A stretch of DNA of 64,000 nucleotides. Origin: Escherichia coli (GTDB taxonomy: Bacteria; Pseudomonadota; Gammaproteobacteria; Enterobacterales; Enterobacteriaceae). Each line of letters begins with the position of its first letter. Position 1 is the first letter of the stretch. The translations under genes were made by a program, and so were the position numbers. The notes below the pieces were generated by a model. That model was not told the DNA's origin. It worked only from the letters and a program-made list of their open reading frames with translations, and did no database searches. Shown here in pieces: positions 13,833 to 15,614 of the stretch. Where the stretch lies: NCBI RefSeq assembly GCF_044324875.1, contig NZ_CP172185.1; one strand, given 5' to 3'.

Positions 13833-15614
13833 TCAGGCGCTCAATGATTCCTCTTCACGCACGCTGGCTGCCAGCTCTTCGCCCGCAAGTTGCAGTTGAT
13901 ACATCTGCCAGTAGCGTCCCTGGGCCGCCAGCAGTTGCTGGTGAGTGCCCTGCTCCACGGCTTGCCCACGATGAAGCACCAGAATAGTGTCGGCATCAAC
14001 AATAGTTGATAAGCGGTGAGCAATCACCACCAGCGTGGTATGCTCACGCACCGCCGCCAGAGCATGTTGAATCGCCTGTTCAGTACCGGAGTCAATGCTG
14101 GCTGTTGCCTCATCAAGGATCAGGATTTGCGGCGTCTCCACCAACACGCGTGCCAGTGCCAGCAGTTGCTTTTGCCCGACGGAGAGATTATTCCCCTGCT
14201 CGCCAAGCGGCGTGTAAATACCGTCGCTCATGCTACGCGCCAGCTCCGCCAGTTGCACGGTTTCCAGCGCCTGCCAGACGCGTTCTTCGGAGATATCACG
14301 CCCCAGCGTCACGTTGGCGAGGAAGGTATCCGCCAGCACCACCGGATCTTGCTGCACCATTGCCACGCCCTGGCGCAGCGCGCTGTGACTTAGCGAACTT
14401 AATGGACGACCATCAAGGCGAATCTCACCTTCCGTTAGCGGGTAATAGCCCATCAATAAACTGGCGAGGGTACTTTTACCACTGCCGGTATGCCCGACCA
14501 GCGCCACAAAATTGCGCGAAGGCACAGAGAGATTAATGTTCTTTAGCACCATATTGTCATCGCGATAAGCAAATGACACGTTATCGACTTCGATGGTGCC
14601 GCTCTGTAACGGGCGATCATCATTGCCATATTGCTGGCGCGGTCCGTCCATCAGCTCAAACACACGCTCACCAGCAACAACAGCCTGTTGCAGCATCGCC
14701 TGCTGCGTGGTCAGTTCGATTAAAGGTTCGTTAAGTCGCCCAAGATAGCTGATAAACGCATACAACACGCCCACTTCAATGGTGCCGCTGGCGGAGAAGC
14801 CAAACAGCATCAACAAGCCACAAAGAATGAGCGATGAAAACAGACTCAGCAGCGGACGCAGCAGAAAACCGTCGAGGCGCAGGGTTTGCATCCTCGCCAT
14901 ATAGTGTGAACGACTGGCCTCACCCATACGTTCGCCAAATCGCGCCTGCTGACGGAACTGCTGGATAACGCTCATGCCATTGATGATTTCGTTAAAGCCG
15001 TCGTTGATATCTGCCAGATAAGCGCGTACACGGCGGACAATCGGCGTGCTGTAACGCTGATATATCACCATTACCACCAGCACCACCGGGAAAATCATTA
15101 TCGCCACCAGCGCCATTCGCCAGTCGAGGCTGAACATCGCCACCAGCATCGCGCCCACCAGTGCGGCGCTACGCAGGACAGTTGCCACTACGGTAACGTA
15201 GAGGTCGCGGATCACTTCAGTGTCATTAGTGACGCGGGAAATCACCTGCCCGACGGGTTGGGTATCAAACTCGCTTAATGGCTGGCGTAACGCAGCATCC
15301 ATCACGTCGGTACGCAACTGTTGCACTACGCCTACTGCCGCCCGATTAAACAGCAGCGACTGCGCGTAATGTAGCCCGGCGGCAAACAGTTGCAGCCCAA
15401 CATACGCCGCAGCCAGCCCTGCAACCACTTTCAACGGCAGGTTATTTTTCGCTACCATATTGTCGATAAAATAGCTGATAAGCAGCGGCCCACTGACTTC
15501 TGCCGCTGCCGCAACCCACATCATCATGACCGCAATCCCCAGCGGTTTACGCCACGGCGAACCGTACGCTAACAGACGCTTGAGAGTCGGCCACAGTTGG
15601 CTAAAACTACGCAT
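13833..15614 (-). CDS. mdlB: ABC exporter ATP-binding/permease MdlB
   Basis: ORF 13833..15728 trimmed to ATG 15614, [23 protein letters not shown]..., 593 aa; Walker [13 protein letters not shown] signature LSVGQKQ. Confidence 0.93.

Follow-up and report, generated by a model that had tools for sequence, protein, structure and literature searches.

The overlapping stop and start codons found in the analysed stretch of Escherichia coli DNA (the window, 64,000 nucleotides in length) are a well-known and ordinary feature of this organism, already known as such, and overlap alone is no proof of coupled translation. The reading that we regard as probable is that these are already-annotated junctions between co-directional neighbours, at which the mdlB start may be used either by a fresh 30S subunit or by a restarting ribosome, with a mixture of modes at the short overlaps and a greater likelihood of independent initiation at the long ones. 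By its conservation inside an otherwise variable region, one of them, the mdlA/mdlB junction, is more than a product of chance.

Overlapping junctions of the window and their counterparts in E. coli K-12

The window aligns end to end with the region at ~426.8-486.2 kb of E. coli K-12 MG1655, in reverse-complemented orientation and with about 98% DNA identity. The initial annotation had reported five overlaps in it, every coordinate of which proved correct on direct reading and translation. On the minus strand, mdlA (15607..17379; 590 aa, GTG start, TAG stop) and mdlB (13833..15614; 593 aa, ATG start) overlap by 8 nt (15607..15614; ATGCGTAG on the coding strand), and thiL (54092-55069) overlaps pgpA (53599-54114) by 23 nt (54092..54114) with the curated pgpA ATG. 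On the plus strand, the stop of cyoB (38265-40256) overlaps the start of cyoC (40246-40860) by 11 nt (40246..40256), and TAATG joins cyoC to cyoD (40860-41189) at 40858..40862, with a 1-nt overlap at 40860, and xseB (47563-47805) to ispA (47805-48704) at 47803..47807, with a 1-nt overlap at 47805. Two further overlaps had been omitted from that listing: one of 38 nt between the panE stop and the yajL start (45265..45302, plus strand), which is annotated in the same way in K-12, and one of 8 nt between the stop of the parD antitoxin and the GTG start of the parE(relE) toxin (60459..60466, minus strand; GTGTATAA). These overlaps leave zero intergenic space between the paired genes, and at each junction the ribosome-binding region of the downstream gene falls within the final codons of the gene before it.

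The curated K-12 gene models (b0448/b0449 for mdlA/mdlB; b0429-b0431 for cyoD, cyoC and cyoB; b0421/b0422 for ispA/xseB; b0417/b0418 for thiL/pgpA) agree with those of the window in gene names, coordinates and start codons. The stop/start geometry in K-12 RefSeq is the same at five junctions, namely -8 for mdlA/mdlB, -11 for cyoB/cyoC, -1 for both cyoC/cyoD and xseB/ispA, and -23 for thiL/pgpA, bearing out the view that such overlaps are to be expected in these operons. Since the curated K-12 starts are identical, the disagreement between curated and chosen starts that might have spoken against the latter was not encountered. The ORFs at the junctions are intact when translated and equal the K-12 models in length, with the exception of pgpA (171 aa here versus 172 aa in K-12), which ends one codon early because an adjoining strain-specific insertion alters its last 3' codons. 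This insertion relative to K-12 (51621-53602, between yajO and pgpA) carries an ORF of 523 aa (51851-53422, plus strand) with the annotation of pentapeptide-repeat protein; ~932 complete E. coli genomes contain the whole insertion. The lengths of CyoC and CyoD also equal those of the sequences deposited with cytochrome bo3 structures, with CyoD aligning identically over its full length; in the depositions holding modelled residues alone, CyoC begins at residue 21 and CyoD at residue 13-14, and the N-termini are therefore not directly viewed. Among the rows listed from the TRAINSPOTTER N-terminomics tables, the junction genes are absent.

To place these junctions against the spacing preferences of E. 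coli, we counted the co-directional neighbouring pairs of the window from its annotation: 7 of ~43 overlap, and 5 of ~43 fall in the -8 to +6 class, which genome-wide accounts for 707 of 2,987 pairs (24%) in E. coli (PMC10666635). Overlaps are not enriched in the window as a whole. The commonest spacing in E. coli is -4, followed by -1 and -8 (PMC10666635; PMC12548453). There is no -4 pair in the window; four pairs lie inside the enriched classes (mdlA/mdlB and parD/parE at -8; cyoC/cyoD and xseB/ispA at -1) and three outside them (cyoB/cyoC at -11, thiL/pgpA at -23 and panE/yajL at -38).

In addition to the pentapeptide-repeat gene, the strain differs from K-12 in having an extra parD/parE pair and an IS21-family element. 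The parD and parE genes (60185-60466 and 60459-60701, minus strand) lie between secF and yajD in a segment (60164-60851) that is absent from K-12 and matches E. coli 042 at 100% identity; ~424 of 5426 complete genomes contain the whole segment. The IS21-family insertion sequence (21878-24529, plus strand), between fadM and ybaV, comprises ISSso4-like istA and istB genes with a 16-nt gap; it too is absent from K-12, and has many copies on other E. coli chromosomes and plasmids. The dxs-yajO spacer (50592-50645, plus strand) measures 54 nt here as against 179 nt in K-12, which has ~123 extra bases. Within 13000-18000, the mdlA segment at 16001-17000 diverges most from K-12 of all fully aligned 1-kb bins (94.8% identity over 1 kb). 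When the 5-kb mdlAB region was compared with 5426 complete E. coli genomes, its best match reached only 99.2%, whereas two other segments, 51500-53700 and 60050-60950, have 100% matches among E. coli genomes; the mdlAB region may be a locally imported, divergent stretch. An Rfam scan of the window recovered two matches above the gathering score, the sraA small RNA (30090-30185, plus strand) in the interval from clpX to lon, and ffs, the 4.5S RNA of the signal recognition particle (9699-9795, minus strand). Both lie away from the junctions, where the scan detected no known RNA elements.

Conservation of the mdlA/mdlB junction

The start of mdlB is preceded, 6 nt upstream of its ATG, by the Shine-Dalgarno sequence GAGGAGG (15621..15627, minus strand), which is embedded in codons E585-E586-A587 of MdlA. 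Its computed duplex with the anti-Shine-Dalgarno sequence (-11.8 kcal/mol) is the strongest of the nine junctions for which this was calculated. Of 5426 complete E. coli genomes, 5423 contain the mdlAB region, which has the annotation of two separate genes in every match listed. We then scanned species-representative genomes with MdlB and took the best 80 loci, all of which come from Enterobacteriaceae, with 84-99% protein identity. In these best 80 loci, the -8 arrangement, of the form NTG-NNT-AR, is seen in 80 of 80 species, and a GGAGG Shine-Dalgarno sequence stands 6-7 nt upstream of the mdlB start throughout. Across the same 80 species, the 66-nt junction sequence occurs in 79 different forms and the final ten residues of MdlA in 66; the mdlB start codon is ATG in 77 and GTG in 3, and the mdlA stop codon is TAA in 41 and TAG in 39. 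Because the mdlA stop codon is embedded there, the third residue of MdlB is limited in the 80 species to S, K and N, encoded by codons starting with AG or AA.

This pattern extends to individual bases of the ribosome-binding site. In the 80 species, the GGA at -11 to -9 is invariant, and the G at -8 and the G at -7 are conserved in 95% and 90%, respectively. The amino acid specified by the codon at -13 to -11 varies among the species (E, Q, S, T, A or K), and the third base of that codon is G in all 80; elsewhere in mdlA, just 42% of the glutamate codons are GAG. The persistence of this third-position G despite the change of amino acid, against the 42% background, argues for selection on the nucleotides themselves. 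Judged from this comparison, the bases that make up the ribosome-binding site of mdlB, together with the exact -8 spacing, appear to be under selection beyond that on the two proteins.

These observations bear on the idea that the overlaps are a neutral by-product of genome compaction, with stop and start codons drifting into one another without any role in expression and both protein ends tolerating the change. Several of the other junctions have features in keeping with it. The thiL and pgpA genes overlap throughout, by an amount that differs with the genus (-8 in Kluyvera, -14 in Pantoea, -20 in Dickeya, and -23 in Shimwellia and the window), and two candidate pgpA starts, an ATG and a TTG, both arise from the conserved Y-D-H-F residues at the ThiL C-terminus. 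The xseB/ispA spacing is either -1 (Pantoea and Shimwellia) or -4 (Dickeya), several of the pairs are functionally unrelated, and the window lacks any enrichment of overlaps. As for the remaining spacings, panE/yajL is at -38 in Dickeya, -47 in Pantoea and -41 in Shimwellia, and cyoC/cyoD is at -1 in Shimwellia too. However, drift does not readily account for mdlA/mdlB being at exactly -8 in all 80 species of the best 80 loci despite the 66 forms of the MdlA tail, or for the nucleotide-level selection to which the invariant third-position G points, and we consider a purely neutral origin unlikely.

With regard to the wider context of the mdlA/mdlB junction, a consensus scan found no promoter-like or convincing terminator-like site near it, and cyuR-mdlAB has been reported as a probable operon (PMC11408624). 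An antisense ORF of 130 aa that runs across it (15526-15918, plus strand) was rejected as spurious because stop codons interrupt the equivalent frame in 70 of the 80 species. MdlB combines ABC_membrane and ABC_tran domains, and RefSeq assigns MdlA to the SmdA family and MdlB to the SmdB family. The mdlAB locus has two adjacent genes with transmembrane and ATP-binding domains, as is typical of heterodimeric ABC exporters of the SmdAB/MdlAB type.

Initiation at the downstream starts

In INRI-seq (PMC9825163), synthetic fragments of every K-12 gene, each with 30 nt of upstream and 153 nt of coding sequence, are translated in a purified system with retapamulin. In Table S2 of that study, the annotated starts of mdlB, cyoB, cyoC, cyoD, ispA, yajL and panE have a peak in every replicate, that of xseB has a weaker peak (4 of 5 replicates), and pgpA, thiL, mdlA and cyoE have none (PMC9825163). 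The column of the same table that gives in vivo Ribo-RET data (Meydan et al. 2019) has a peak of 13.4 for mdlB, whose K-12 start (470636) is thus marked by both approaches, none for mdlA and none for pgpA either (PMC9825163). The K-12 fragments match the window around the starts of cyoC, cyoD, ispA and yajL, and those of mdlB and pgpA differ from it at 2 positions each within the 30 upstream nucleotides; we infer that the K-12 initiation results apply to this strain. In K-12, the starts of mdlB, cyoC, cyoD, ispA and yajL can recruit ribosomes without upstream translation, as measured in vitro on short, denatured RNAs, an approach that may overstate the independence of starts. For pgpA, the missing initiation signal could reflect either dependence on thiL translation or mere low efficiency.

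The ribosome profiling that the initial annotation had proposed as a check on its starts is accordingly matched by published K-12 peaks at mdlB, cyoC, cyoD and ispA, but by none at pgpA. Its related argument, that the overlaps support the chosen start codons, is circular as it stands, although independent data back four of the five downstream starts; the exception is again pgpA, which lacks a peak and has an alternative TTG start.

The signals around these starts vary in kind. Within the upstream gene, the Shine-Dalgarno sequence is strong for yajL (AAGGAG) and moderate for cyoC and cyoD; ispA has almost none (-3.2 kcal/mol), yet has the least structured start region. Folds of the -60 to +40 region at nine junctions gave z-scores of -0.95 to +0.93 relative to shuffled sequences, with no unusual RNA structure hiding the downstream starts. 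As the junction RNA is not unusually structured, the 'unfolding' route to coupling is without specific support. INRI-seq also reports an extra initiation site at 40846-40848 (plus strand), 14 nt upstream of the cyoD start, in 3 of 5 replicates and solely in vitro. Initiation there, at the codon for Met201 of cyoC, would yield a 4-codon product (MGAM) that terminates in the TAATG with which cyoD starts. For secF and clpX, out-of-frame sites at -7 are also recorded in the INRI-seq table, each accompanied by an in vivo peak.

At the mdlA/mdlB junction, the geometry suggests that when the UAG of mdlA occupies the A site of a terminating ribosome, the AUG of mdlB would begin 2 nt upstream of the P-site codon, with the Shine-Dalgarno sequence at an optimal distance. 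The mdlB start could then be reached by two routes: a fresh 30S subunit may bind the Shine-Dalgarno sequence, or the terminating ribosome may be held by it and restart. At the short overlaps (-1, -8 and -11), de novo initiation is probably mixed with some coupling, and at the long ones (thiL/pgpA at -23 and panE/yajL at -38) independent initiation would be likelier. Any share of coupling at these junctions is something that we infer; no coupling experiments on these gene pairs were found in the published literature, and recent reporter tests of native E. coli pairs dealt only with pairs of -4 to +1 spacing (PMC12548453).

The initial annotation had gone further in taking the overlaps to indicate translational coupling. 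In its strict form, this would mean that translation of a downstream gene depends wholly, or almost wholly, on ribosomes fresh from terminating on the gene before it, so that the two proteins would be made in a set ratio. In favour of this claim, the short spacings lie in the range of re-initiation: the -1 and -8 classes are enriched and fall within the efficient range, and four of five native E. coli -4 pairs were tightly coupled when tested, mostly with the aid of a Shine-Dalgarno sequence (PMC6728339). Strict coupling is also in line with mdlAB, cyoBCD and parDE encoding complex partners, a class enriched for short overlaps, with the near absence of a Shine-Dalgarno sequence for ispA and the lack of a de novo initiation peak for pgpA, and with the unvarying mdlA/mdlB geometry across the 80 species of the best 80 loci. 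However, strict coupling implies a downstream start unable to recruit ribosomes alone, and mdlB, cyoC, cyoD, ispA and yajL show no such inability, initiating on fragments that lack the upstream gene; in vivo, Ribo-RET detects mdlB without detecting mdlA. Moreover, bioBF is an overlapping pair that is uncoupled (PMC6728339). Coupling is most efficient between -4 and +3, drops faster with overlap than with spacing, and is nil at -25 (PMC12548453), which leaves thiL/pgpA, at -23, poorly placed for re-initiation. Finally, the products of xseB/ispA, thiL/pgpA and panE/yajL are not complex partners. Strict coupling at these junctions is hence unlikely.

A more specific version of this idea applies to mdlA/mdlB, where re-initiation anchored by the Shine-Dalgarno sequence might be obligate: the GGAGG would hold the ribosome, which would step back 2 nt to the AUG, yielding MdlA and MdlB at 1:1 for a heterodimeric exporter. 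We regard this as doubtful. A stoichiometric rationale fits cyoB/C/D and parD/E, and perhaps mdlA/B, and does not fit xseB/ispA, thiL/pgpA or panE/yajL; cyo and mdl go unmentioned in two papers on stoichiometry. A cefazolin phenotype results from deletion of mdlA and none from deletion of mdlB (PMC11408624), and these differing phenotypes weaken the case for the overlap as a setter of a 1:1 subunit ratio.

A different concern is that a start annotated too far upstream could make an overlap an artefact. This applies mainly to pgpA, where initiation at Met17 would turn the overlap into a 25-nt gap. The curated pgpA start has neither an INRI-seq nor a Ribo-RET peak, a Shine-Dalgarno-like AGGA lies just 1 nt from its ATG and is thus badly spaced, and the Pfam PgpA domain starts at residue 24. 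Against this, an alignment of 18 PgpA proteins showed A11, K12, R14 and L15 to be at least 90% conserved and Met17 to be replaced by Leu in several genera, and the start codons upstream of A11 in the pgpA ORF are the ATG (-23) and the TTG (-14) alone, both inside thiL. Given this conservation upstream of it, Met17 was ruled out as the start, and the true start must lie inside thiL. Initiation peaks are, in addition, present at the other downstream starts. Misannotation as the source of the overlaps is therefore very improbable. The TTG is codon 4 of pgpA (54103-54105, minus strand) and would give a 14-nt overlap; the AGGA motif is better spaced with respect to it, at 10 nt, and in Kluyvera the equivalent TTG is the sole available start. 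Going by the reading frames, the pgpA start could be either the curated ATG or this TTG, and thiL and pgpA would overlap with certainty whichever of the two serves. A programmed frameshift in the 8 nt shared by the mdlA and mdlB frames, yielding a fused full-length ABC transporter, is brought to mind by closest solved relatives that include single-chain full transporters such as ABCB1, but can be rejected with near certainty given that the junction has neither a slippery heptamer nor a stimulatory structure, that the mdlB start codon and its Shine-Dalgarno sequence are conserved with an initiation peak at the ATG, and that two separate proteins are annotated among the genomes listed.

Relation to characterized gene pairs and implications

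The trpB/trpA junction has the geometry TGATG, a -1 stop/start overlap like those of cyoC/cyoD and xseB/ispA. For trpBA, coupling has been demonstrated (cited in PMC6728339) and the products are subunits of one enzyme, whereas XseB and IspA are functionally unrelated. The -4 ATGA pairs (PMC6728339) are likewise co-directional, with a short overlap and mostly with a Shine-Dalgarno sequence inside the upstream gene; their coupling was probed by introducing premature stop codons while controlling for the transcript, and the pairs considered here differ in being spaced at -1, -8, -11, -23 and -38. The behaviour suggested by INRI-seq for the junctions of the window more closely resembles that of bioB/bioF (Huber et al. 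2019, PMC6728339), a pair that overlaps and in which translation of the second gene is initiated de novo. That pair has another overlap geometry, and its independence was established by a premature-stop reporter test in E. coli cells, whereas the data here are mainly in vitro.

Among transporters, SmdAB of Serratia marcescens and BmrCD (YheI/YheH) of Bacillus subtilis are heterodimeric ABC exporters encoded, as is mdlAB, by two adjacent half-transporter genes, and among solved structures that of YheH/BmrD is closest to MdlB. Serratia SmdAB has been proposed to function as a heterodimer, and doubt has been cast on this for E. coli MdlAB, which differs from SmdAB and BmrCD in that its heterodimer is putative and the deletion phenotypes of its two genes differ (PMC11408624).

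The junctions confirm that the gene models of the window are correct and match those of K-12, and their value is mostly one of quality control. They also caution that 'overlap' is not to be equated with 'coupled', given that most of the downstream starts here work alone according to published initiation maps. For the Enterobacteriaceae, the 80-species comparison indicates that selection acts on the bases of the ribosome-binding site of mdlB and on the -8 spacing, over and above that on the proteins. If obligate re-initiation were true of it, mdlA/mdlB would represent a naturally conserved model for the -8 class of overlaps.
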